From IMG/VR virus record IMGVR_UViG_2703718824_000015: 10,462 bases of DNA. The stretch is one strand, 5' to 3'. The position numbers and the translations under genes were made by a program. Numbering within the stretch: the stretch's first letter is position 1; each line of letters begins with the position of its first letter. The DNA is from a virus (taxonomy: Duplodnaviria > Heunggongvirae > Uroviricota > Caudoviricetes). Below the pieces are notes generated by a model, which saw only the letters and a program-made list of their open reading frames with translations, was not told the DNA's origin and ran no database searches. Below, piece by piece: positions 1 through 10,462 of the stretch.

Positions 1-240
1 TATGCGTGATATTTACCTCGAAACAATAGACCGCGCATTTCTTGCACTTTCTCACAGTGAAAACATGCTGGAAATATTGCGCATATAGCTTGAAACACTT
101 GGCGACAATGAACGCGACAAACAAAAATCAAGAATTGCCACGGCATTAATAACGATTCTTGAGCATGTAATAATGGAACTGCAAGAAATAGATCTATTGC
201 ACGACAGATATAAAGAACAGCACACCGGAGAATAAAAATA

Positions 241-540
241 ATGAAATTTAAATATTCTGGCTTAACTGCCAGTGGCAACACTCACCCTAAATTTACGCGC
301 GGTGATATTTACCGCGACCAGTACGGCGGCACGGTAATGATTAAGGGCGTGGCGGGACGGTGCGTAACTTACCGCCGTGAAGGTTACGAATATGATTGCG
401 TGATGCCTGTTTATCAGTTCCGGCGTGATTTTTCTCTTGTGCAGGCCGTACCGCGTAACGTGCCCACCAGCAGGGAGAAAGCACGCGCCAATATTCAGAA
501 GATGAAAAACATGATTAACGGATTCAGGGGCAAAAAATGA
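241..540 (+). CDS. hypothetical small protein (99 aa), translationally coupled to the downstream primase gene
   Basis: ATG at 241 with GGAG about 10 nt upstream; stop TGA overlaps the ATG of the next gene (ATGA at 537-540); no recognisable motif. Confidence 0.5.
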   Translation: MKFKYSGLTASGNTHPKFTRGDIYRDQYGGTVMIKGVAGRCVTYRREGYEYDCVMPVYQFRRDFSLVQAVPRNVPTSREKARANIQKMKNMINGFRGKK

Positions 541-2291
541 AACTGGCACCGAACGTAAAACAGCAGCCACGCGGCATAAAACACAAAGAAACAGAAGTCA
601 TTATTTTTGCGGGTAGTGATGCCTGGTCACACGCGAAACAATGGCAGGAACATGACGCGCGTATGGCCGGAGATAATGAGCCTCCTGTGTGGCTTGGGGA
701 GCAGCAGTTATCAGAACTGGATAAGCTGCAAATTGTGCCGGAAGGCAGAAAATCCGTGCGCATATTCAGGGCCGGATATCTTGCGCCAGTAATGATAAAG
801 GCGATTGGTCAGAAGCTGGCGGCGGCAGGCGTACAGGATGCAAATTTTTACCCTGATGGTATGCACGGTCAGAAGGTGGAGAACTGGCGCGAATATCTGG
901 CCAGTGAGCGCCAGAATCTTTCTGATGGGCTGGTTATTGAGCTTCCTGTAAAGCAAAAGGCGCAACTTTCGCAGATGGCGGACAGTGAGCGCGCTCAACT
1001 TCTTGCCGGACGATTTGATGGCGTTTGCGTGCATCCTGAAAGTGAAATCGTTCACGTATGGCGCGGCGGGGTATGGTGTCCGGTCAGCACAATGGAACTT
1101 AGCCGCGAAATGGTGGCGATCTATTCAGAGCACAGGGCCACTTTCAGCAAGCGCGTAATCAATAACGCCGTGGAAGCGTTAAAAGTTATTGCCGAACCAA
1201 TGGGCGAGCCGTCCGGCGATTTGCTGCCGTTTGCCAATGGTGCGCTTGACCTGAAAACGGGGGAATTTTCCCCGCACACGCCGGAGAACTGGATCACCAC
1301 GCACAACGGTATTGAGTACACGCCACCAGCACCAGGGGAGAACATCCGCGATAACGCGCCAAACTTTCATAAATGGCTTGAGCACGCAGCCGGAAAAGAC
1401 CCGCGCAAGATGATGCGGATATGTGCCGCGCTGTACATGATTATGGCGAACCGGTACGACTGGCAGATGTTTATTGAGGCCACCGGAGACGGCGGGAGCG
1501 GTAAAAGTACATTCACACACATAGCCAGCCTTCTGGCAGGGAAACAGAACACGGTAAGCGCTGAAATGACATCGCTTGATGATGCTGGTGGACGTGCGCA
1601 GGTTGTCGGGAGTCGCCTTATCGTCCTGGCTGACCAGCCGAAATATACAGGCGAAGGAACGGGCATCAAGAAAATCACGGGCGGTGACCCCGTGGAAATT
1701 AACCCGAAATATGAAAAGCGTTTTACGGCGGTAATCAGGGCGGTGGTGCTGGCGACCAACAACAACCCGATGATATTCACCGAACGGGCCGGAGGTGTGG
1801 CACGTCGTCGCGTGATTTTCCGTTTCGACAATATCGTCAGTGAGGCCGAAAAAGACAGGGAGCTACCGGAAAAGATTGCGGCTGAAATCCCTGTCATTAT
1901 CCGCCGATTGCTGGCGAACTTTACCGACTCTGAGAAAGCACGGGCTTTACTACTGGAACAGCGTGACGGTGATGAAGCTCTGGCAATAAAGCAACAGACG
2001 GATCCGGTTATTGAGTTTTGCCAGTTCCTGAATTTTCTGGAGGAAGCGCGCGGCCTGATGATGGGGGGCGGTGGTGATTCAGTGAAGTACACGACCAGGA
2101 ACAGCCTTTACCGCGTCTATCTGGCGTTTATGGCATACGCAGGCAGGAGCAAACCGCTAAACGTGGCTGAGTTCAGCAAGGCCATGAAGCCAGCGGCGAA
2201 AGTTTACGGGCATGAATATATTACGCGAAAAGTTAAGGGAGTAACGCAGACCAACGCAATTACAACAGACGATTGCGACGCGTTTTTATAA
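537..2291 (+). CDS. P4/PICI-type replication initiator: primase with SF3-helicase-like P-loop NTPase domain
   Basis: 584-aa ORF with Walker A motif GDGGSGKST followed by a hydrophobic stretch ending in D (LIVLAD); overall resemblance to phage/plasmid primase P4-family C-terminal domain proteins; iteron array lies immediately downstream. Confidence 0.85.
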   Translation: MKLAPNVKQQPRGIKHKETEVIIFAGSDAWSHAKQWQEHDARMAGDNEPPVWLGEQQLSELDKLQIVPEGRKSVRIFRAGYLAPVMIKAIGQKLAAAGVQDANFYPDGMHGQKVENWREYLASERQNLSDGLVIELPVKQKAQLSQMADSERAQLLAGRFDGVCVHPESEIVHVWRGGVWCPVSTMELSREMVAIYSEHRATFSKRVINNAVEALKVIAEPMGEPSGDLLPFANGALDLKTGEFSPHTPENWITTHNGIEYTPPAPGENIRDNAPNFHKWLEHAAGKDPRKMMRICAALYMIMANRYDWQMFIEATGDGGSGKSTFTHIASLLAGKQNTVSAEMTSLDDAGGRAQVVGSRLIVLADQPKYTGEGTGIKKITGGDPVEINPKYEKRFTAVIRAVVLATNNNPMIFTERAGGVARRRVIFRFDNIVSEAEKDRELPEKIAAEIPVIIRRLLANFTDSEKARALLLEQRDGDEALAIKQQTDPVIEFCQFLNFLEEARGLMMGGGGDSVKYTTRNSLYRVYLAFMAYAGRSKPLNVAEFSKAMKPAAKVYGHEYITRKVKGVTQTNAITTDDCDAFL

Positions 2292-2304
2292 TTTTTTGTA
2301 AAAG

Positions 2305-2531
2305 CCCTCTACCCCATCTACCTGAATAAAATAAACGCATATTATTCAACATGATAAGTGGGTAGAGGGCCAGGTAGAAGGCTAATAAAAGCTCTCTACC
2401 TCTTCTACCTGATTTTATCAGTTTCAGGTAGCAGGGTAGACGGCAGGTAGAGGAGCCAAAAAAGCTATCTACCCGCTGAAAGCCGCGCCATTACTGACAT
2501 GATGAGCATTCGGGTAGATGGGTAGAGGGGG
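2305..2531. repeat. iteron array / putative replication origin (about 12 copies of a GGTAGA(G)-type heptamer, mostly in tandem pairs, in both orientations)
   Basis: Direct reading: CTCTACC 2307-2313, ATCTACC 2316-2322, GGTAGAG 2361-2367, GGTAGAA 2373-2379, CTCTACC 2394-2400, TTCTACC 2403-2409, GGTAGCA 2427-2433, GGTAGAC 2435-2441, GGTAGAG 2446-2452, ATCTACC 2467-2473, GGTAGAT 2513-2519, GGTAGAG 2521-2527; AT-rich spacers; position directly 3' of the initiator gene. Confidence 0.6.
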
Positions 2532-2576
2532 GGAGGCACAACTCAAAACTTTTTAAACGAGGGGGTAAAAATAAAT

Positions 2577-2855
2577 ATGCACACTTCAGGGAAATTTAAT
2601 AAATCACTCAAAAAACACAGAGACAGAACAGAACCGAAATATCGCGCGTTAGACATGACAGAGCACGCTTTAAAGGTGGCAATTAGAACGATAGACCGCC
2701 ACGCGGGGGAAGGATACGCGAAGGAACATCCCGACCTGATAAGCGCATTCATGACCACAGCAGCGGCAAACTTTGCCACGCTAACAGAACGGGAGATTGC
2801 CGAAGCGGAACAGGTGACAACCATCAACGTTAAAACCGGAGAGGTGGAATTATGA
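2577..2855 (+). CDS. hypothetical protein (92 aa), first gene of a small operon with the SSB-like gene
   Basis: ATG at 2577 with GAGGGGG about 10 nt upstream; stop overlaps the next ATG (ATGA at 2852-2855); no recognisable motif. Confidence 0.5.
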   Translation: MHTSGKFNKSLKKHRDRTEPKYRALDMTEHALKVAIRTIDRHAGEGYAKEHPDLISAFMTTAAANFATLTEREIAEAEQVTTINVKTGEVEL

Positions 2856-3262
2856 CGGCACAGATAGCCGCTTACGGGCGGCTGGTGGACGACCCGCAGG
2901 TAAAACAGACCAGCAAGGGCACACCGATGACGCTGGCGCGTATGGCGGTATCTTTGCCATGCAGCCAGGCACAGGACGGACAGGCGACGTTATGGTTATC
3001 GGTTATCGCATTTGGCAAACAGGCCGATTTCCTGGCTAAACATCAAAAAGGCGATGTTGCCAGCGTATCCGGCACGATGCAGGTAAGCCAGTGGACCGGA
3101 CAGAACGGGGAAACGCGGCGGGGGTATCAGGTTATTGCAGACAGCGTAATCAGTGCCCGCGCGGCACGTCCAGGCGGGAACAGACGCAAAACCACAGGCA
3201 CACAGGGTAATCAGCCACCAGCGGGAGGCGATGACCCTTACGGTGACGGTATTCCGTTCTGA
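2852..3262 (+). CDS. ssb: single-stranded DNA-binding protein-like (OB fold with acidic C-terminal tail)
   Basis: 136 aa; conserved SSB-like core pattern (GRLVDDP...W..V.AFGK.A......KGD...V.G......W....G..R) followed by a Gly/Pro/Gln-rich linker and a C-terminal DDPYGDGIPF tail resembling the canonical SSB DDDIPF tip; GGAGAGG RBS upstream. Confidence 0.65.
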   Translation: MTAQIAAYGRLVDDPQVKQTSKGTPMTLARMAVSLPCSQAQDGQATLWLSVIAFGKQADFLAKHQKGDVASVSGTMQVSQWTGQNGETRRGYQVIADSVISARAARPGGNRRKTTGTQGNQPPAGGDDPYGDGIPF

Positions 3263-3272
3263 GGGGGTGACG

Positions 3273-3521
3273 ATGGTACATGACCGCATAGCGGAGGAAC
3301 TCGAGGCAAAAGGCTTTTACCGGAGGGCGTCGGCGCGATGGGGTGAAGTCATGCAACTGGTGGAGACAGACAAGGAACGGCATCAGGTTACGATGCGACG
3401 GCTGGAATGTTCCAGGAAGGCACAGAGGCCACCGGAGCCGCCAACGGAGAACTACGCAGACCTGAGAAATGCAGTAAATCGCACTTACGCAGACATGGGG
3501 CTGAGCAAATTAGCAGAGTAG
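3273..3521 (+). CDS. PerC-family transcriptional activator homologue
   Basis: 82-aa product MVHDRIAEELEAKGFYRRASARWGEVMQLVETDKERH... matches the PerC/Pch signature (E.LE.KG.[WY]RRAA.RW..V.....E.ER); start chosen at ATG 3273 (GAGGGGG 6 nt upstream) rather than the ORF-track start 3153, which would overlap the SSB gene. Confidence 0.65.
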   Translation: MVHDRIAEELEAKGFYRRASARWGEVMQLVETDKERHQVTMRRLECSRKAQRPPEPPTENYADLRNAVNRTYADMGLSKLAE

Positions 3522-3543
3522 GAATATCAGAACCACACCATAC

Positions 3544-3566
3544 AGCCGGAGCAATCCGGCTTTTTG
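3544..3566 (+). terminator. rho-independent terminator after the PerC-like gene
   Basis: Stem AGCCGGA / TCCGGCT with GCAA loop, followed by a TTTTT run extended by further T-tracts. Confidence 0.5.
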
Positions 3567-3825
3567 TTATTTTTTGTAAATTATTTGTTCGTGGTTGTTC
3601 CACGTTGTTCACTGAGCGGATCGGCATATTTTACCCGAACTGAATCATGATTATTCTCGCCCGTGGTGCCAGGACGCTGGGGCCACTTTCCCGCCTGTTA
3701 ATGTGCTCGCCAATATTCATTACCAGGCGGGAAAACGATCGGTGCGATTGCTGATTTCCTTATGAAAAACGGTTGAGTGTTTGCCGCGTCCTGGAGTTCC
3801 TTACTTAACCCCAGGACTTTTTTTT
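3567..3825 (+). promoter_or_regulatory. structured intergenic region upstream of the head operon (phased T-tract/TTGTTC repeats, 11-bp inverted repeat, hairpin plus T8); probable late promoter/control region
   Basis: TTGTTA 3564, TTGTAA 3575, TTGTTC 3585, 3595, 3605 at about 10-bp phasing; perfect inverted repeat TTTCCCGCCTG 3687-3697 / CAGGCGGGAAA 3724-3734; GTCCTGG 3788-3794 / CCAGGAC 3811-3817 followed by T8 abutting the capsid ATG. Confidence 0.3.
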
Positions 3826-4983
3826 ATGCCGAGAATAATCGAATTACGCCAGCAGAAAACCGCCATTAAAAATCAGATGCGCGACATGCTGGAGAACGCT
3901 GAAAAAGAAAACCGCAGTCTTAACGATGCTGAGGGCGCAAAATTTGACGAATTACGCGCTAAAGCTGAATCCCTCGATAAAGACATTTCCCGCCTTGAAG
4001 CCATTGCAGACGAAGAGCGCAGCAAGCCAGGTAAAAGCAGTCAGACCACTGACCCCGCAGAACTACGAAACTACATTCTGACGGGTGAAACCCGCGCATT
4101 AAGTACAGGCGTTCCCGCTGATGGTGGTTATACCGTTATCCCCGAACTGAACACCGAAATCATGCGAATGCTGACGGATGAATCCACCATGCGCCGCATC
4201 TGTACCGTGAAGAAAATCAGCAGCAACGAGTTTAAGCAGCTTGTTTCCGCTGGCGGTGCGACCGTTAACCACGGTGAAGAGGGTAAGGCACGCGAACAGA
4301 CCAGCACCCCGCAGATTAACGAGGTGAGCATTAAGCTGTATCCGGTCTATGCGTACCCGCGCACCACACAGGAAATCGTGGATTTTTCCGATGTGGACAT
4401 CCTTTCATGGCTGACGGGTGAGATTGGCGACACCTTCACGGAAACCGAAGAAAGCGATCTGGTTGTGGGCGACGGTGACAAAAAAGCAAAAGGTTTTTTA
4501 TCCGTACCCCGTGCAGAGAAGAACGACAAAGAGCGTGATTTTGGTACGTTGCAGGTAATTAAACCTTCCGAATCTCTGGCGTGGACATCTGCGGACCCGT
4601 TGATCGACCTGAAATTTGCATTACGTAAAAAATACCGCAAAAACGCGGTCTGGGTGGTTAACTCCACGACGGCGGCAAAACTTCAGAAGGTGAAGAACGC
4701 GAACGGTGATTACATCTGGCGCGACCGTTTACAGGCGGGTGATCCTGATACGTTGCTGGGCCTTCCGGTCGAATATCTGGAGTTTATGCCTGATAACGTT
4801 ATTGCCCTGGGTGACTTCAAACGCGGTTACTACATTGTTGATCACGAAACAGGTGTTCGCACCAGACCGGACAACCTCACAGAGCCGGGCTTCATCAAAA
4901 TTTTCACGCAGAAATATTTAGGCGGTGGCGTGGTGGATTCGAACGCGATCAAGATTCTGGAACTGCCACAGGACGACGATTAA
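3826..4983 (+). CDS. major capsid protein, HK97 family, with N-terminal coiled-coil (delta/scaffold-like) domain
   Basis: 385-aa product; charged N-terminal region predicted coiled-coil (ELRQQKTAIKNQMRDMLENAEKENRSL...), then HK97-type capsid body with C-terminal GDPDTLLGLPV and GDFKRGYYIVD motifs; start set at first ATG (3826), the ORF track extends to TTG 3781; no obvious SD. Confidence 0.85.
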   Translation: MPRIIELRQQKTAIKNQMRDMLENAEKENRSLNDAEGAKFDELRAKAESLDKDISRLEAIADEERSKPGKSSQTTDPAELRNYILTGETRALSTGVPADGGYTVIPELNTEIMRMLTDESTMRRICTVKKISSNEFKQLVSAGGATVNHGEEGKAREQTSTPQINEVSIKLYPVYAYPRTTQEIVDFSDVDILSWLTGEIGDTFTETEESDLVVGDGDKKAKGFLSVPRAEKNDKERDFGTLQVIKPSESLAWTSADPLIDLKFALRKKYRKNAVWVVNSTTAAKLQKVKNANGDYIWRDRLQAGDPDTLLGLPVEYLEFMPDNVIALGDFKRGYYIVDHETGVRTRPDNLTEPGFIKIFTQKYLGGGVVDSNAIKILELPQDDD

Positions 4984-4994
4984 CAGCATACAGA

Positions 4995-5022
4995 AGGGGC
5001 TTAAAAGCCCCTTTAGTGTTTT
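4995..5022 (+). terminator. putative intrinsic terminator/attenuator after the capsid gene
   Basis: Stem AGGGGCT / AGCCCCT with TAAA loop followed by TTTAGTGTTTT. Confidence 0.4.
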
Positions 5023-5037
5023 ATGGGTGAAAAAATT

Positions 5038-5595
5038 ATGAAGAGTATGGAAATCCGGTCATCGGAAATCACCACCAGCGGAGCCGGTACGCTGACGGGC
5101 TACGTTGTTCGCTGGGATAAGCTTTCAGAACTGTTATGGGGTGAGTTTTACGAAAAATTCCAGCGGGGAGCGTTTACTGAATGGCTTGCAGCGGGTAATG
5201 ACGTTCGCGGCCTGTATGAGCATGACCACAGTATGTTACTGGGGCGTACCCGTTCCGGCACGCTGAAACTGGAAGAGGACGAAACAGGGTTACGCTTTGA
5301 ACTGACCCCACCGGATACCAGCACAGGGCGGGACGTTATCGAACTGGTTAAACGTGGTGATATATCCGGCATGAGCTTTGGCTTTCGTTCCCGTAAGGAT
5401 GTATGGGATACCACAACAGATCCATGCGTGCGCACCGTGCTGGTGGCGGAACTGTACGAAATTACCGTTACATCCGTTCCGGCTTACCCTGATTCCGGCG
5501 TGGAGCTGGCCCGCCGTTCCCTGTATGAGCAGCACCCCGAAAAAATGCCGCGTGCGGATAATCGCCGCTGGTGGGTGGATTTAGCGGGGGTGTGA
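5038..5595 (+). CDS. prohead maturation protease, HK97 family
   Basis: Resembles HK97 prohead protease (Peptidase S78/U35): N-terminal G.L.GY.V.W...........E.F..GAF pattern and conserved central region; start ambiguous (ATG at 5023, 5038 or 5047), 5038 chosen for GGGTGA spacing. Confidence 0.8.
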   Translation: MKSMEIRSSEITTSGAGTLTGYVVRWDKLSELLWGEFYEKFQRGAFTEWLAAGNDVRGLYEHDHSMLLGRTRSGTLKLEEDETGLRFELTPPDTSTGRDVIELVKRGDISGMSFGFRSRKDVWDTTTDPCVRTVLVAELYEITVTSVPAYPDSGVELARRSLYEQHPEKMPRADNRRWWVDLAGV

Positions 5596-5596
5596 T

Positions 5597-6808
5597 ATGT
5601 GGCCTTTCAGAAGAAAAAAAGAGCAGCGCAGCATGACGCTTGATGAATTTATGGCGCTGGCTGGCACATCGAACACGGGGGCGGGTGAGTACGTATCATC
5701 GGGGACAGCGGAATCACTGCCCGCCGTCATGAACGCCGTCACGGTCATCTCTGAGGCGGTGGCTACCATGCCGTGTTACCTGTACCTGGTACGCAATGAG
5801 AAGGGGAAGGAGGCCCGCGAGTGGCTTGATTCTCATCCGGTCGATCACATCCTCAACGAGCGCCCGAACGCATGGCAAACCCCCTACCAGTTTAAGCGAA
5901 TGATGATCCGCCACTGCCTGTTAAACGGTAATGCTTATGCGGTGATTCAGTGGGGGCGTGATGGTTTTCCGGCGGCTTTACATCCTTACCCGCCGCAGTC
6001 GGTGAACGTGGAGCAGACAGGCGAACACAACTGGCGCTACTGCATCACTGACGCCTACACCGGAAACACCCGCAACTATTTACCGTGGGAAGTACTTCAC
6101 CTTCGTTACTCCACGGATGACGGCTTTATGGGGCGCTCACCTGTAACCATCTGCCGCGAATCGCTGGGGCTTGGGCTGGCCCAACAACGCCACGGCGCGA
6201 GCGTGATGCGTGATGGCATGATGGCGGCAGGGGTTATCACGTCAGGCGAATGGCTGGACGGCGTGAAGGGCAAACAGGCATTAGCCGCACTGGAACGCTA
6301 CAAAGGGGCCAGAAACGCCGGAAAAACGCCCATCCTTGAAGGGGGGATGAGCTATCAGCAGCTGGGCATGAGTAATCAGGATGCTGAATGGCTGGCCTCC
6401 CGTCGCTTCACCATTGAAGACATCGCCCGAATGTTCAACGTCTCGCCGATTTTTTTGCAGGAATACAGCAACAGCACCTACAGCAATTTCAGCGAGGCAA
6501 GCCGCGCATTTCTCACCATGACGATGCGCCCGTGGCTGGCGAACTTTGAGCAGCAGATAAAAAACGCCCTGCTGGTGGCCTCGCCTGTACCTGGTATCCG
6601 GTATCAGGTGGAGTTTGACAGCGCGGACCTGTTACGGGCCACACCTGGCGAACGCTTTGCCACCTATGAGCGCGGCATCAAATCCGGCGTAATGTGTCCG
6701 AACGAAGCCCGCGAACGTGAAGGACTGTCACCGCGTGATGGTGGTGATGAGTTCAGCCAGGCATGGAAACAGGAAGTAAAAATCAGCGAGGGAGAAAAAC
6801 CGGAATGA
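5597..6808 (+). CDS. portal protein, HK97 family
   Basis: 403-aa product with typical portal N-terminal region (SGE.V....A..L.AV..AV..ISE.VA..P) and overall HK97-portal-like length and composition; GGGGG RBS upstream; stop overlaps next gene start. Confidence 0.85.
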   Translation: MWPFRRKKEQRSMTLDEFMALAGTSNTGAGEYVSSGTAESLPAVMNAVTVISEAVATMPCYLYLVRNEKGKEAREWLDSHPVDHILNERPNAWQTPYQFKRMMIRHCLLNGNAYAVIQWGRDGFPAALHPYPPQSVNVEQTGEHNWRYCITDAYTGNTRNYLPWEVLHLRYSTDDGFMGRSPVTICRESLGLGLAQQRHGASVMRDGMMAAGVITSGEWLDGVKGKQALAALERYKGARNAGKTPILEGGMSYQQLGMSNQDAEWLASRRFTIEDIARMFNVSPIFLQEYSNSTYSNFSEASRAFLTMTMRPWLANFEQQIKNALLVASPVPGIRYQVEFDSADLLRATPGERFATYERGIKSGVMCPNEAREREGLSPRDGGDEFSQAWKQEVKISEGEKPE

Positions 6809-7143
6809 ACATAGGGCGATTGCGTGACAGGATAACGATTCAGACCCTGAAACAGACCAGGGATATAACCGGCGAAATACTCGAAACGTGGGAGGACGGT
6901 CACACACTCTGGGCAAGCGTGAACATGGTCAGCAGCAAGGAGGCCATTTCATCGGGTGCAGAGCTGGCGATTGGTACCGTAAGGATCTGGATACGGTACC
7001 GGAAGGACATCAACGCCACCAGCCGGATAAAGGTCAGTACGGGGCCGCTGGCGGGGCGTGTACTGAATATCATCGGGCAGCCGCTGCCGGATGCCGCCAG
7101 GACACGCCTTGAAATTCTTTGTCGTGAGGGCGCGGAAAAATGA
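6805..7143 (+). CDS. head closure / head-tail adaptor protein (SPP1 gp16-like)
   Basis: 112 aa starting MNIGRLRDRITIQ, a typical N-terminus for this family; ATGA overlap with the portal stop and with the next gene. Confidence 0.7.
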   Translation: MNIGRLRDRITIQTLKQTRDITGEILETWEDGHTLWASVNMVSSKEAISSGAELAIGTVRIWIRYRKDINATSRIKVSTGPLAGRVLNIIGQPLPDAARTRLEILCREGAEK

Positions 7144-7436
7144 CAGAAGAACTTATCACCCTGGAAGAAGTGAAACTCCATTGCCGCATCGATGGCGACG
7201 AGGAAGACCAGTTAATCAGCGGATACATTGCCGCATCGCTTGAGGCGTGCCAGATACACATAGGCAGGCGCTTTGATGACGGGCTGGAGTTCACGCCAGC
7301 CATAAAGATTGGCTGCATGATGTTTATCGCTCACCTGTATGAGAATCGCCAGATTGTCGCGGATAACGCAAAAACACGCGTACCCATGACGATTGGCGCA
7401 CTCTGGACGGCTTACCGTGATGTGGGGGTGTACTGA
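7140..7436 (+). CDS. gp6-like head-tail connector protein
   Basis: 98 aa; N-terminus ITLEEVKLHCRIDGDEEDQLISGYIAAS is the characteristic gp6-like motif; translationally coupled on both sides. Confidence 0.65.
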   Translation: MTEELITLEEVKLHCRIDGDEEDQLISGYIAASLEACQIHIGRRFDDGLEFTPAIKIGCMMFIAHLYENRQIVADNAKTRVPMTIGALWTAYRDVGVY

Positions 7437-7876
7437 TGCCGTGGCAACCATTAAGACGATGCACAGAACCAGGCTGTAACAGGCGCGTTAAATCCGGCAA
7501 GTGTGAAGAGCACAGGCGGGCGGCATGGCGTGCAGAGGATGCCAGACGAGGACACCGCCGCGCGCGTGGATATTCCAGACAGTGGGACAAATACCGCGCC
7601 ATGTATCTGAGTAAAAACCCGTTATGCGTGCGATGCCTTGAGAAGGGGATATATACGCCCGCCGTGGTGGTGGATCACATTATCCCGATTAATGGCGGTG
7701 ATGATGTTCTCTTCTGGCCCGAATGGAACCATCAACCATTGTGTCAGGCGTGTCATAACCAGAAAACGAAATGGCTTGATCCGGCAACAAAAAGCAAGCG
7801 TGCCGCAGGTGGATTTCGTGAAGAGGAAGAACGGGCCGCTAACCGCAATAACTGGATGTATGACGCTGATGAATGA
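7436..7876 (+). CDS. HNH endonuclease (terminase-associated, HK97 gp74-like)
   Basis: 146 aa; Cys pairs (C..C, C..C) and the HNH core DHIIPINGG...N.QPLC..CHN.KT; located immediately upstream of the terminase small-subunit gene. Confidence 0.8.
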   Translation: MPWQPLRRCTEPGCNRRVKSGKCEEHRRAAWRAEDARRGHRRARGYSRQWDKYRAMYLSKNPLCVRCLEKGIYTPAVVVDHIIPINGGDDVLFWPEWNHQPLCQACHNQKTKWLDPATKSKRAAGGFREEEERAANRNNWMYDADE

Positions 7877-8045
7877 GCGGGAACAAAACCGCCTTATCCG
7901 TGGACTTATAAGGCAGCGTGACGCATGGAAGACACAGGAAACAGGGCATAAAGATAAAGCGTCAGGACGTGCAGAACGCATCACAGCGAAGCGATTAACC
8001 GACCGTGACCGCGAGGTTATGGAATGTTTCCGCAATCGCTGGTGA
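7860..8045 (+). CDS. hypothetical small basic protein (about 61 aa), overlapping the 3' end of the HNH gene
   Basis: ORF in a different frame from HNH (ATG at 7860 or 7869); Arg/Lys-rich product (...NEREQNRLIRGLIRQRDAWKTQETGHKDKASGRAERITAKRLTDRDREVMECFRNRW); no motif recognised, may be spurious. Confidence 0.3.
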   Translation: MTLMNEREQNRLIRGLIRQRDAWKTQETGHKDKASGRAERITAKRLTDRDREVMECFRNRW

Positions 8046-8165
8046 TGCTGTATGACGGGGTGGGGGGCGTTTTCAGGACAAACCCGACCCCGCCGGGCAC
8101 CGAACGCCTCCTCAAATTTTTATGCACGGGAATTTTTTGAAAAATAATCTGGCGAAAAAATAAGC
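8046..8165. other. candidate cos / packaging-initiation region between the HNH and terS genes
   Basis: Noncoding 120 bp with G-run GACGGGGTGGGGGGCG (8054-8069) and imperfect partner CCCGACCCCGCCGGG (8083-8097), flanked by AT-rich tracts; position matches cos in HK97-like phages; purely positional and compositional. Confidence 0.25.
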
Positions 8166-8522
8166 ATGGCAAGACCACCGAAAGCCCCCGCCTACCTGGA
8201 TGATATCGCCGTGAAGCAGTGGCGGGAAAAATCGCGGCAGCTTGCGGAACGGGGTGACCTGACCCCCGCCGACTGGAGTAATCTGGAACTGTATTGCGTC
8301 AATTACTCGATATACCGGAAAGCCGTCGCAGACCTTGCGGCGCGCGGGTTCAGCATTGTTAACAGTCAGGGCGGAGAGAGCAGAAACCCCGCATTAAGCG
8401 CGAAATCCGACGCGGAAAGAGTGATGATAAAAATGGCCTCCTTGCTCGGTTTTGACCCGATAAGCCGCCGTAAAAATCCACCGGAAACAGAAGAAGAGGA
8501 CGAGCTTGACCGCCTGGAATAA
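8166..8522 (+). CDS. terS: terminase small subunit (P27 family-like)
   Basis: 118 aa; resembles P27-family small terminase, including the N-terminal region and acidic C-terminus (EEEDELDRLE); directly upstream of and overlapping the large terminase gene. Confidence 0.8.
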   Translation: MARPPKAPAYLDDIAVKQWREKSRQLAERGDLTPADWSNLELYCVNYSIYRKAVADLAARGFSIVNSQGGESRNPALSAKSDAERVMIKMASLLGFDPISRRKNPPETEEEDELDRLE

Positions 8523-10167
8523 GTACGCAGAAGACGTAAAAACGGGCAAAATTCCGGCCTGTAAACGGCTGAAACAGGCCGTTAAACGGTACTTTTCGGA
8601 CCTTGAAAGCCCCCTTTACACGTTCGATCGTGAGGTTGTGGAGCGGTTTATTGCCTTTTCCAGGGTGTGCCCGCACGTAAAAGGGCCGATGCGTGGCAGA
8701 CCCATTGAGCTGGAGCCGTGGCAGCAGTTCGCCTTTGCGTGCATCCTCGGCTTTAAGGTTAAGGCCACCGGACGGCGCAAATACACGAGCGCCTTTATCG
8801 AAGTGCCGCGCAAAAATGCGAAATCCACGACCGCCGCGATTCTGGCTAACTGGTTTCTGATTATGGAGAACGGGCAGCAGGATATTTACACCGCAGCGGT
8901 GAGCCGTGACCAGGCGCGGATCGTTTTTGATGATGCGCGTCAGATGTGCCTTTTATCCCGACCGTTACGCAGGCGGGTGAATATTCAGGCCCACAAGGTG
9001 ATGCACCCGAAAAGCAACAGCCTGTTAAAGCCGCTGGCAGCAAAAGCGGCAACCATCGAGGGAACAAACCCCAGCCTTTCCATCGTGGACGAATACCACC
9101 TACACCCCGATAACGGCGTTTATTCCGCGCTTGAGCTGGGGATGGGCGCACGTCCCGAAGGGCTGTTATTTGCCATTACCACATCGGGCAGTAACGTCGT
9201 TTCAACCTGTAAACAGCACTATGATTATTGCTGCCAGATCCTGGACGGCGAAGAGGTCAACGATTCAATTTTTGTGCTGATTTACGAGCTGGACGACGAA
9301 AACGAGGTTGATGATCCGGCGATGTGGATAAAGGCTAACCCTAACATCGATGTTTCCGTGGATCGTGAAAAACTGGCCTCAACCATCCAGAAAGCGCGGG
9401 GTATTCCGTCGCAATGGGTGGAGATGATGACAAAGCGATTTAATATCTGGTGCCAGGGGGCTACCCCGTGGATGGGTAACGGCGCATGGGCTGAGTGTGC
9501 CGGAACGTTCACGGAGGAAGATTTACACGGGCAGGAGTGTTACGCGGGGCTGGACTTATCATCAACCAGCGATATTTCCAGCGTGTGCTATGCCTTTCCG
9601 GTCGGTAAAAATATCATGCTGGTTTCCCGTCATTATCTGCCGGAGTTCCAGCTACAGAACCCCGCCAATAAAAACCGCGCTGTCTATCGCCAGTGGGCTA
9701 AAGCGGGCTGGATACGCACAACGCCAGGTGACTGCATTGATTACGACCGGATCAGAGATGACATCATGCAGGATGCGGAGAAATTTAATATCAGGCTGGT
9801 GGGCTTTGATACGTGGAACGCCACGCATCTCAGGACGCAATTACAGGGGGCTGGTTTTGAGGTGGAGCCGTTCCCGCAAACCTACCTCAGATTCAGTCCG
9901 GCGGCGAAATCGTTCGAAGTTTTTGTTAACCGCAGGGTGATTGTGCATCGTGGCGATCCGGTGTTGTCCTGGTCGATGAGTAACGTCGTGATGCAGAGTG
10001 ACGCGAACGCCAATATCAAGCCGAACAAGAAAAAATCACCGAACAAGATAGACCCGAGCGTGGCGGCGCTGATGGCGTTTGGTACATTCCAGGCAGAGCA
10101 TGAGGATTTTGCTTTTGATATAAGCGACAGCCACCGCCAGAAACTGGAAGAATTTAGCGGGGTGTAA
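8506..10167 (+). CDS. terL: terminase large subunit (Terminase_1 family)
   Basis: 553 aa; N-terminal YAEDVKTGKIPACKRLKQAVKRYFSDLE typical of large terminases, deviant Walker A (VPRKNAKST), C-terminal nuclease-like region; likely TTG start at 8506 with AAGAGGA SD 6 nt upstream, overlapping the terS 3' end. Confidence 0.9.
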   Translation: MTAWNKYAEDVKTGKIPACKRLKQAVKRYFSDLESPLYTFDREVVERFIAFSRVCPHVKGPMRGRPIELEPWQQFAFACILGFKVKATGRRKYTSAFIEVPRKNAKSTTAAILANWFLIMENGQQDIYTAAVSRDQARIVFDDARQMCLLSRPLRRRVNIQAHKVMHPKSNSLLKPLAAKAATIEGTNPSLSIVDEYHLHPDNGVYSALELGMGARPEGLLFAITTSGSNVVSTCKQHYDYCCQILDGEEVNDSIFVLIYELDDENEVDDPAMWIKANPNIDVSVDREKLASTIQKARGIPSQWVEMMTKRFNIWCQGATPWMGNGAWAECAGTFTEEDLHGQECYAGLDLSSTSDISSVCYAFPVGKNIMLVSRHYLPEFQLQNPANKNRAVYRQWAKAGWIRTTPGDCIDYDRIRDDIMQDAEKFNIRLVGFDTWNATHLRTQLQGAGFEVEPFPQTYLRFSPAAKSFEVFVNRRVIVHRGDPVLSWSMSNVVMQSDANANIKPNKKKSPNKIDPSVAALMAFGTFQAEHEDFAFDISDSHRQKLEEFSGV

Positions 10168-10180
10168 TGAGGTCAGCAGC

Positions 10181-10462
10181 ATGACAGAAGCCGAAATAAC
10201 GGGATTAATCCGCCGCGTTGCCGGAATCAGCCAGCAGGCTGACGAACAGGCCACGCAGCCGGACAGCGTGACAGCCGAAAACTATGCGCGTGTTGTTGCT
10301 GAGGTGATGCGCCGTGATGGTATAGAACTTAATGGCGTGGATATGCGCAACATACGAACCAGAGTTCTTGAGTTGCTGGCCTACCGTCGCCGTGTGGAGA
10401 TGTATCGGGAGAAGGAGAAAATAACGTACCACTGGAAGAAGCCGGAGCGGTTGCGGCGGTAA
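10181..10462 (+). CDS. hypothetical protein (93 aa) downstream of terL
   Basis: ATG at 10181 with GAGG SD about 8 nt upstream; complete ORF ending TAA at the window edge; no motif recognised. Confidence 0.45.
   Translation: MTEAEITGLIRRVAGISQQADEQATQPDSVTAENYARVVAEVMRRDGIELNGVDMRNIRTRVLELLAYRRRVEMYREKEKITYHWKKPERLRR

Follow-up and report, generated by a model that had tools for sequence, protein, structure and literature searches.

The satellite P4 has no capsid, portal, protease or terminase genes of its own: Sid alters the size of P2 capsids for it, and packaging relies on the cos and terminase of its helper. The phage HK97, by comparison, forms a capsid with T=7 geometry. The prototype of the capsid-forming PICIs (cf-PICIs) is EcCIEDL933 of E. 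coli O157:H7 EDL933 (Alqurainy et al., bioRxiv 10.1101/2022.09.08.507074; He et al., bioRxiv 10.1101/2025.02.11.637232), which we located on the EDL933 chromosome beside roxA. Island protein has been found in EcCIEDL933 capsids and high-frequency, helper-dependent transfer has been shown experimentally; among cf-PICIs, induction by a helper, small capsids of island protein, exclusive self-packaging and the use of helper tails have been demonstrated only for this island and a few others. In the published experiments, EcCIEDL933 is induced by phages HK106 and HK446 in an alpA-dependent manner, its capsids measure 46 x 42 nm, and by cryo-EM the capsid is T=4 and 47.5 nm. Mutants of its packaging module lose transfer for every gene but 1792, whose mutant transfers poorly, and transfer is abolished by mutations in helper tail genes; tail compatibility is set by the adaptor and connector proteins, according to published cf-PICI work.

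The stretch of DNA analysed here, 10,462 nucleotides in length and hereafter called the window, very probably comprises two modules, one for replication and one for capsid and packaging, of an integrated E. coli cf-PICI, a close mosaic relative of EcCIEDL933. The initial annotation had proposed a cf-PICI from the window alone, and this reading is supported by an integrase, AlpA and att repeats in a contig (L006) that carries the complete element and differs from the window by a single mismatch across all 10,462 bases, as well as by 97.2% DNA identity between window positions 3539-10462 and EcCIEDL933 (6,924 bases, ungapped). The element is thus already known: its family has been described, and the copy is near-prototype rather than new.

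The capsid and packaging operon

Gene calls rest on Pfam curated cut-offs, PHROGs and NCBIfam. Profile searches of the ORFs against these collections identified every gene that the initial annotation had named, each intact and on the plus strand, with Pfam scores that exceed the curated cut-offs. A single co-directional operon runs from the capsid gene through protease, portal, head closure, connector, HNH, orf61, TerS and TerL to orf93. All eight genes of the cf-PICI head and packaging set are there, in the described order and with 96-100% protein identity to EcCIEDL933, the percentages below being identities to that prototype unless stated otherwise:

3687..3734, no strand: inverted repeat in the capsid-operon leader, 17-nt arms 94% complementary
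3826..4983, plus strand: HK97-fold major capsid protein, 385 aa (Pfam), 99.7%
5023..5595, plus strand: prohead serine protease (Peptidase_S78), 190 aa, 97.4%
5597..6808, plus strand: portal, 403 aa, 99.3%
6805..7143, plus strand: head closure/completion protein (Phage_HCP; PHROG 'head closure Hc1'), 112 aa, 96.4%
7140..7436, plus strand: gp6-like connector (PHROG 'head-tail adaptor Ad1'), 98 aa, 100%
7436..7876, plus strand: HNH endonuclease, 146 aa, 99.3%
7860..8045, plus strand: conserved small ORF orf61, 61 aa (phrog_3173), residues 1-60 100% identical
8046..8165, no strand: non-coding gap between orf61 and terS, candidate location of cos
8166..8522, plus strand: TerS, P27 family (Terminase_4, TIGR01558), 118 aa, 100% over 106 aligned residues
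8506..10167, plus strand: TerL, ATPase and nuclease domains, 553 aa, 98.2%
10181..10462, plus strand: orf93, 93 aa (phrog_1561), last gene of the island; the classical PICI L005 has it at its right end too (89% DNA identity)

The major capsid protein differs from that of EcCIEDL933 at a single residue, and likewise at one from PDB chain 9gyi_B (A155 against T155). It shares with HK97 the capsid fold and the SxGxxAD maturation motif, which begins here at S93, and the head module as a whole consists of the same protein families as that of HK97 and follows the same logic of cos packaging assisted by HNH. HNH endonucleases of such a type are partners of the terminase in HK97-type cos packaging. 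Unlike HK97, the island has no tail, lysis or lambdoid regulatory genes and places the capsid genes first and the terminase last; the T=4 capsid of the near-identical prototype also differs from the T=7 capsid of HK97.

We consider that the cos site probably lies within 8046-8165, where there is a conserved G-rich box (8055-8079); in a related packaged genome, the linear record ends at this box. From the sequential numbering of the genes, orf61 is probably the 'gene 1792' of EcCIEDL933, and the inverted repeat in the operon leader may serve as an operator or form a hairpin in RNA. A sigma-70 consensus scan returned five sites; because this is fewer than the shuffle mean of 8.6, no promoter is claimed. 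Terminator-like sites number 17, against a shuffle mean of 12.4 (sd 4.1), about one standard deviation higher, and a search of the window for structured RNAs with Rfam at a permissive threshold gave nothing credible.

Searched against Pfam and PHROGs, the ORFs of the window gave no match to tail, baseplate, tape-measure or lysis families, and for the island as a whole the gene calls in L006 include no tail or lysis gene. The further suggestion that the small ORFs are accessory or helper-interference cargo did not survive comparison with EcCIEDL933, which keeps them at 81-100% protein identity; judged by this conservation, they are core genes rather than variable cargo. PADLOC defence models matched none of the small ORFs in the window, and a role as defence cargo was dropped; PADLOC likewise returned nothing for two genes, of 264 aa and 331 aa, that lie between int and alpA in L006 and in a second locus, L008. 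The observation that orf93 also ends L005 led us to consider it as the packaging-redirection protein Rpp, classical PICIs of the Rpp type being those that steer the TerS of the helper to their own cos. This candidate was rejected because orf93 has no solved-structure match, an argument that applies if the Rpp structure was deposited, as the abstract of PMC6739421 appears to imply; PHROGs assigns orf93 no function.

Boundaries and attachment site

In L006 the complete element spans 15,565 bp between att repeats, inside the range of approximately 10-18 kb given for cf-PICIs in the literature and close to the 10-15 kb or so anticipated from the window for an element without tail or lysis genes. 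It reaches approximately 4.36 kb to the left and 0.75 kb to the right beyond the window. On the left are a tyrosine integrase at the end of the island, a nearby AlpA regulator and small early genes, and on the right there is only 747 bp of non-coding DNA:

L006 5297-6517, outside the window: integrase, 406 aa (Arm-DNA-bind_3 and Phage_integrase)
L006 7400-7624, outside the window: AlpA (PF05930)

The integrase and the alpA-like regulator that the initial annotation anticipated in the flanks are therefore both located, as are the direct repeats. The att core, AGAAATACCCGTAT, is a 14-bp direct repeat within the TPP riboswitch of thiM and is present at both island ends in perfect copies. When the flanks are joined with one copy of the repeat, the empty site so reconstructed aligns with E. 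coli genomes at 100% and in a single piece, and at least 80% of the empty-site sequence is found in one place in 4,728 of 5,426 genomes. The chromosomal neighbours of the island are rcnR to its left and thiM to its right, where an ordinary HK97-like prophage, with a genome of about 40 kb, would have continued into a full set of tail and lysis genes. A 60-bp direct repeat near both ends of L006 was rejected as att, as it sits inside the island; the true core is the riboswitch repeat.

At least 80% of the window is found in one place in 294 of the 5,426 complete E. coli genomes, and the best coverage of the window by any phage in a collection of 50,697 records is 19% or less. An equivalent design of approximately 15 kb occurs at three chromosomal sites with differing integrases: thiM, tqsA (a relative of approximately 15.3 kb) and the roxA-phoQ interval.

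The position of the island has a further aspect. The int gene now follows the thiM promoter and the aptamer's 5' half, which read into it on the same strand from 190 bp upstream, and thiMD sits behind 15.6 kb of co-directional island genes and keeps just the 3' half of the aptamer. Insertion inside the aptamer might conceivably affect regulation in ways not yet described, although we regard this as rather unlikely; if it were so, carriage of the island could free the thiamine-salvage genes from TPP control, or couple int expression to the thiM promoter.

Replication module and module switch

The island has a replication module of its own, with an initiator carrying D5_N, DUF5906 and Pox_D5, an iteron cluster and an SSB. 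The features on the left of the window are as follows:

2..235, plus strand: early ORF, 77 aa in relatives (phrog_2196), shortened here by the nonsense change W29* at position 87
241..540, plus strand: DUF4222 protein, 99 aa (Pfam), 81% identical to its EcCIEDL933 counterpart
537..2291, plus strand: replication initiator (pri-rep), 584 aa, with D5_N, DUF5906 (SF3 helicase) and Pox_D5
2308..2526, no strand: putative replication origin, 11 TCTACC iterons, mostly closely spaced pairs in both orientations
2577..2855, plus strand: conserved ORF, 92 aa (phrog_1231), 91% identical to its EcCIEDL933 counterpart
2852..3262, plus strand: SSB, 136 aa (Pfam)
3273..3521, plus strand: PerC-family transcriptional activator, 82 aa (Pfam, PHROGs), closing the replication and regulation module
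3544..3575, plus strand: terminator-like hairpin and T-run after perC, coinciding with the module switch point

The stop of the DUF4222 gene overlaps the start of the initiator gene. The initiator had been described as a P4-like primase/helicase, a description that stands for its D5_N and SF3-helicase part: the C-terminal domain is common to P4, and the protein scores 108.9 bits against the C-terminal model TIGR01613 ('phage/plasmid primase, P4 family'; cut-off 108.7). The primase half of the description is not supported: domain searches of the initiator detected no primase catalytic domain. The iteron origin, on the other hand, holds up: TCTACC occurs 11 times in the window, each time within 2308-2526, the interval that directly follows the initiator gene, and none of 200 shuffles reached this count (mean 2.5, maximum 8). 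An A+T-rich stretch at approximately 2323-2355 adjoins the iterons.

Comparison with L005, a classical Gram-negative PICI of the EcCICFT073 type, reveals a change of relatedness at the end of this module. The pri-rep protein of L005 is identical to that of the window, and its DNA is 98.7% identical over window positions 2-3499, which takes in the early ORF, DUF4222, the initiator, the origin, orf92, SSB and PerC; its left end is int-alpA, as in the element here. Identity to L005 stops at 3499 and high identity to EcCIEDL933 begins at 3539. Beyond the shared part, L005 has features of its own, namely a lambda E-like capsid homologue, a gpD-like protein and a Nu1-like protein, and it has no protease, portal, connectors, HNH, TerS or TerL; it therefore depends on helper capsid and terminase proteins.

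EcCIEDL933 has the same gene order from DUF4222 through the last ORF and a size of 15.4-15.5 kb, as against 15.6 kb here. Its initiator is a 710-aa DUF927 protein, whereas that of the window is the 584-aa D5_N/DUF5906 protein, and the two can be aligned over the first 227 residues only (64% identity). Its integrase, of 409 aa, is found at the roxA-phoQ interval, whereas that of the element here has 406 aa and is found at the thiM riboswitch. The element here has an additional 264-aa gene between int and alpA, and EcCIEDL933 an additional 74-aa ORF between perC and the capsid gene. Because the initiators differ, details of replication and induction may differ as well. On these alignments, module shuffling is all that separates the copy from the prototype, the exchanged parts being the integrase with its attachment site and the initiator.

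Alternative readings and predicted life cycle

An island that is a cf-PICI by descent may nevertheless be inactive, through a lesion outside the packaging genes or for want of a compatible helper. The 77-aa early ORF is prematurely stopped in the window and intact in six related copies, and there is a precedent for decay: a Shigella flexneri copy has lost approximately 90 bp spanning the start of terS, so decayed copies exist. However, all genes of known role are intact and near-identical to those of the functional prototype, and the att repeats are perfect, which leaves inactivity improbable. The nonsense change itself is of one base and may reflect either an error in sequencing or a mutation that arose very recently.

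Still less probable, to the point of being very doubtful, is a decayed HK97-like prophage from which tail and lysis genes were deleted, and which would not be a satellite. The capsid and packaging proteins do belong to HK97-type phage families, but the unit of 15.6 kb lies within precise att repeats with chromosomal genes on either side, its integrase is intact, and the packaging ORFs are all full length relative to the functional prototype. The recurrence of the 15-kb design with different integrases at three sites, the number of genomes that carry most of the window and its low coverage by phage records also speak against decay, as does replication and regulation of the PICI type (alpA, pri-rep), with a replication module common to a classical PICI. 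That the element belongs with the classical PICIs or the P4-like satellites and remodels helper-encoded capsids can practically be dismissed: its initiator reaches the P4-family model and is identical to that of L005, and like P4 it is a satellite that integrates, has a tyrosine integrase and needs a helper for virion parts, but it encodes its own capsid, protease, portal and connector, and its own TerS, TerL and HNH, no window ORF matches the P4 Sid, Psu or Delta families in Pfam or PHROGs, so that remodelling genes of the Sid type are absent, and orf93 is not Rpp if the deposition implied by PMC6739421 is accepted.

We therefore return to the cf-PICI reading, for which the steps of the life cycle can be carried over from the published work on EcCIEDL933, given the 97% DNA identity across the packaging module; for the copy here, we infer the helper, the promoters and cos. 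A helper prophage or an infecting phage would turn on alpA, and the island would excise and then replicate from its own origin. Its own proteins would form small T=4 capsids of the HK97 fold, and its own TerS, TerL and HNH would cut and package island concatemers at the island cos, probably in 8046-8165. The head-closure and connector proteins would then join the DNA-filled heads to the tails of a helper phage. Because the head-closure protein is 96% and the connector 100% identical to those of EcCIEDL933, usable tails are predicted to be of the HK106-type siphovirus kind.

The copy brings no new principle. Recognising cf-PICIs avoids labelling them as defective prophages or small 'phages' in databases, and these elements move DNA among strains, and even genera, via tail-less, DNA-filled capsids that take tails from various phages. 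The comparisons made here indicate that a single replication module is common to classical and capsid-forming PICIs, and that the packaging cassette is swapped as a block, with its junction at the perC terminator, among islands of differing integrases and initiators.

Gene content and relation to EcCIEDL933

The + strand carries every substantial gene of the window. Taking Pfam assignments above curated cut-offs, we recovered the whole HK97-type capsid and packaging set and the SSB that the initial annotation had read from the sequence alone. It had also claimed an absence of tail and lysis genes, and indeed no window ORF matched a tail, baseplate, tape-measure, holin or endolysin family in Pfam or PHROGs. 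Four small ORFs (2577-2855, 7860-8045, 10181-10462 and the DUF4222 gene) fall into PHROGs without known function.

Features of the window (Pfam assignments on the + strand; small ORFs in + strand coordinates) and protein identity to the island EcCIEDL933
241-540, +, DUF4222
537-2291, +, 584-aa initiator (D5_N, DUF5906, Pox_D5)
2577-2855, small ORF
2852-3262, +, SSB
3273-3521, +, PerC-type activator
3826-4983, +, Phage_capsid (HK97 family), 99.7%
5023-5595, +, protease (Peptidase_S78), 97.4%
5597-6808, +, portal (Phage_portal), 99.3%
6805-7143, +, head closure (Phage_HCP), 96.4%
7140-7436, +, gp6-like connector (Phage_connect_1), 100%
7436-7876, +, HNH, 99.3%
7860-8045, 61-aa ORF, 100% (60/61 residues aligned)
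8166-8522, +, TerS (Terminase_4), 100% (106/118 residues aligned)
8506-10167, +, TerL (ATPase and nuclease), 98.2%
10181-10462, 93-aa ORF, 87%

In published cf-PICI work, EcCIEDL933 of E. coli O157:H7 EDL933 is the 15.4-15.5 kb island that defined the capsid-forming PICI (cf-PICI) family, and it comprises int, alpA, rep, capsid, protease, portal, head-tail connector, HNH, TerS and TerL, with no tail genes. We traced it to the roxA-phoQ interval of the EDL933 chromosome, and its alignment with window 3539-10462 is gap-free across 6,924 bases at 97.2% identity. PDB chain 9gyi_B (a 385-aa 'Major head protein') and the window capsid are one residue apart (A155 versus T155); 9gyi_B aside, the best solved matches of the capsid (3826-4983) are the Rhodobacter capsulatus gene transfer agent capsids 6tb9 and 6tba (E ~1e-46), which belong to another small-capsid HK97-fold system. 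On our reading 9gyi_B is the EcCIEDL933 capsid solved by He et al., an identification that the PDB match itself does not give. The SxGxxAD maturation motif described for the EcCIEDL933 capsid (He et al., bioRxiv 10.1101/2025.02.11.637232) occurs in the window capsid as STGVPAD, starting at S93. The initiators, in contrast, differ: that of EcCIEDL933 is a 710-aa DUF927 protein that can be aligned to the window's only over the first 227 residues (64%).

The window initiator had been described as a P4-like primase/helicase. This stands for the helicase part, NCBIfam TIGR01613 ('phage/plasmid primase, P4 family') being reached at 108.9 bits (cut-off 108.7), but domain searches found no primase catalytic domain in the 584-aa protein, and the term P4-type is therefore valid for its helicase part only. 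The proposed iteron origin is borne out: all 11 window copies of TCTACC lie within 2308-2526, in the 285-bp gap 3' of the initiator gene, a count that none of 200 shuffles gave (mean 2.5). The copies form mostly close-set pairs in both orientations and adjoin an A+T-rich stretch, an arrangement typical of iteron origins.

Island boundaries and the thiM riboswitch site

Many public contigs encode exactly the window's initiator protein. Contig L006 (GCA_020098575.1) covers window 1-10462 at its positions 9465-19926, with 10,461 of the 10,462 bases the same; the sole difference, A for G at window 87, changes Trp29 to a stop in a conserved 77-aa early ORF (2-235, phrog_2196) that is intact in six related copies. 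Extending the window on this contig, as had been proposed, revealed on the 5' side a 406-aa tyrosine integrase, a 264-aa family-less protein and AlpA (PF05930), together with a YlcI/YnfO-family protein on the opposite strand, an Icd-like protein and several ORFs of 64-77 aa; rcnR, rcnA, rcnB and yeh fimbrial genes lie upstream of int. On the 3' side, 747 bp without a called gene are followed by thiM and thiD. A 14-bp direct repeat, AGAAATACCCGTAT, forms the att core at both ends (L006 5095-5108 and 20660-20673).

The thiM TPP riboswitch is split at this core, the left copy closing its 5' half and the right copy opening its 3' half (L006 5060-5108 and 20660-20740, both outside the window); the Rfam TPP match at the right junction reaches 36.4 bits (gathering score 54.3) and leaves the model's 5' half unmatched. 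The 5' aptamer half and the thiM promoter face the island int, which lies on the same strand 190 bp further downstream, and thiMD in the island-carrying contig is left with the 3' aptamer half only. We rebuilt the empty site by joining the two flanks with a single core copy; the resulting 836 bases found 100% single-piece matches spanning the junction in E. coli genomes (with rcnR, 'riboswitch' and thiM annotated), and at least 80% of them lie in one place in 4,728 of 5,426 E. coli genomes. An uninterrupted copy of the site is missing from some 13% of the complete genomes of E. coli.

From the att repeats, the integrase, AlpA and the lack of any tail or lysis gene, we conclude that the element is one discrete, 15,565-bp insertion with no contiguous tail and lysis set and with int and att boundaries in place. 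At the sequence level it has the size, int, regulator and replication module used in the published cf-PICI search, and a complete packaging module in Proteobacterial order without tail or lysis genes; with 97.2% DNA identity to EcCIEDL933 across window 3539-10462, the original reading as a cf-PICI-like satellite is upheld. Unlike P4, the island itself encodes a capsid and a terminase, and it is without Sid, Psu and Delta, which rules out a P4-like satellite; nor is it a classical Rpp-type PICI or an HK97-like prophage. The element is of a described kind, nearly the described prototype EcCIEDL933, and as such already known. The papers searched contain no mention of thiM linked with PICIs in this context, and insertion inside the thiM TPP riboswitch is the only untreated angle that we see for this element.

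Just inside the island ends lies a perfect 60-bp direct repeat (L006 5204-5263 and 20537-20596) that holds a tandem TGTGTGGTCAGT, and an island at the tqsA site with a different integrase (L001) has an analogous 23-bp repeat, CGGTGTAGTCACTGGTGTAGTCA (L001 5072-5094 and 20142-20164). These inner repeats are probably arm-type integrase binding sites, a prediction made because they would flank the att core after excision.

Mosaic structure and distribution

A classical PICI between roxA and phoQ (L005) carries a lambda E-like capsid homologue and gpD-like and Nu1-like genes, without portal or terminase genes. Its initiator protein is identical to the window's, its DNA (L005 9466-12960) matches window 2-3499 at 98.7% identity, and the 93-aa terminal ORF also ends this island (16651-16932, 89% DNA identity). 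The match to L005 ends at 3499 and the high match to EcCIEDL933 begins at 3539; perC stops between these points (codon at 3519-3521), and just after them comes a terminator-like hairpin plus T-run (3544-3575). Given this switch at the end of perC, the window reads as a PICI replication and regulation module joined to an EcCIEDL933-type capsid and packaging cassette. Since a classical PICI shares the initiator, window 2-3499 and the 93-aa ORF, the capsid-forming cassette is exchanged as a block that joins at the perC terminator (window 3500-3540). At 3687-3734, about 90 bp 5' of the capsid start in the packaging-operon leader, the window has an inverted repeat (17-nt arms, 94% complementary, 14-nt spacer); it matches no Rfam family and may be an operator or an RNA hairpin.

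The small ORFs had been put forward as accessory or helper-interference cargo, a suggestion that we abandon: they are kept in EcCIEDL933 at 81-100% protein identity, the 93-aa ORF is present in L005 too, and none matches a PADLOC model. In cf-PICIs the regions that vary are those on either side of the packaging operon and the one downstream of alpA (He et al., bioRxiv 10.1101/2025.02.11.637232). EcCIEDL933 has a 74-aa ORF between perC and the capsid gene, whereas this slot is empty in the window element; the int-alpA slot, outside the window, varies among near-identical copies, holding the 264-aa family-less protein or a 331-aa DUF6387 protein.

Some match to the window occurs in 1,729 of 5,426 complete E. 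coli genomes, and 294 have at least 80% of it in one place. The whole-window arrangement is found in tqsA behind a 409-aa integrase, at 96.7-96.9% identity, in E. coli PCN033, FAH and others. A Shigella flexneri relative has the same gene order with a capsid at 99% identity, and the order recurs in Rosenbergiella, Citrobacter amalonaticus, Erwinia psidii and Gilliamella at 66-74%, in agreement with the published cf-PICI taxonomic range. Within the phage collection, coverage of the window by any record is 19% at most, which agrees with the published distance of cf-PICI modules from those of known phages.

Packaging and proposed mode of action

Packaged cf-PICI DNA has published cohesive cos ends, and we infer a putative cos in the 120-bp gap (8046-8165) between the 61-aa ORF and terS. 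The record LR881103.1 ('Escherichia phage vB_KppS-Ant', an induced prophage of 16.5 kb) begins with terS and terL, followed by int, a primase-type gene, capsid, portal and connector; one ORF is annotated as tape measure and there are no other tail genes. The record shares the layout of this family and resembles a packaged cf-PICI that was submitted as a phage genome. At the end of its linear sequence stands the box GGGGTGGGGG.GTTTTCAGGAC, conserved at window 8055-8079, a weak pointer to cos at this box since record starts are often the depositor's choice. The copy in Shigella flexneri SFBU1023 (L013, ~14263-14269) is without the stretch matching window 8095-8185; the putative cos region and the start codon of terS are lost with it, so the copy is probably packaging-defective.

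Given the near-identity to the functional EcCIEDL933, together with the gene set, iterons and boundaries, we carry the mode of action over from the EcCIEDL933 experiments. In the published work, induction of EcCIEDL933 depends on alpA together with a helper phage (HK106 or HK446, for example), and the island would be induced likewise. EcCIEDL933 forms capsids of 46 x 42 nm, phage DNA being found only in large and island DNA only in small capsids; with T=4 symmetry and a diameter of 47.5 nm, the capsid accommodates the 15.5-kb genome (He et al., bioRxiv 10.1101/2025.02.11.637232). The island would similarly build small capsids for its own DNA. Mutating each packaging-module gene abolished EcCIEDL933 transfer, the exception being 'hypothetical gene 1792', whose mutant transfers poorly; as the capsid gene is '1786' (He et al., bioRxiv 10.1101/2025.02.11.637232) and numbering is sequential, the 61-aa ORF at 7860-8045 is likely the counterpart of '1792'. 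Transfer was also lost when helper tail genes were mutated, and island heads would, as in EcCIEDL933, borrow the tails of a helper phage. Tail fit is set by the adaptor and connector proteins, EcCIEDL933 taking HK106 tails and not HK022 tails; because the connector is identical and the head closure protein 96% identical to those of EcCIEDL933, HK106-type tails are the predicted partners of the island's heads.
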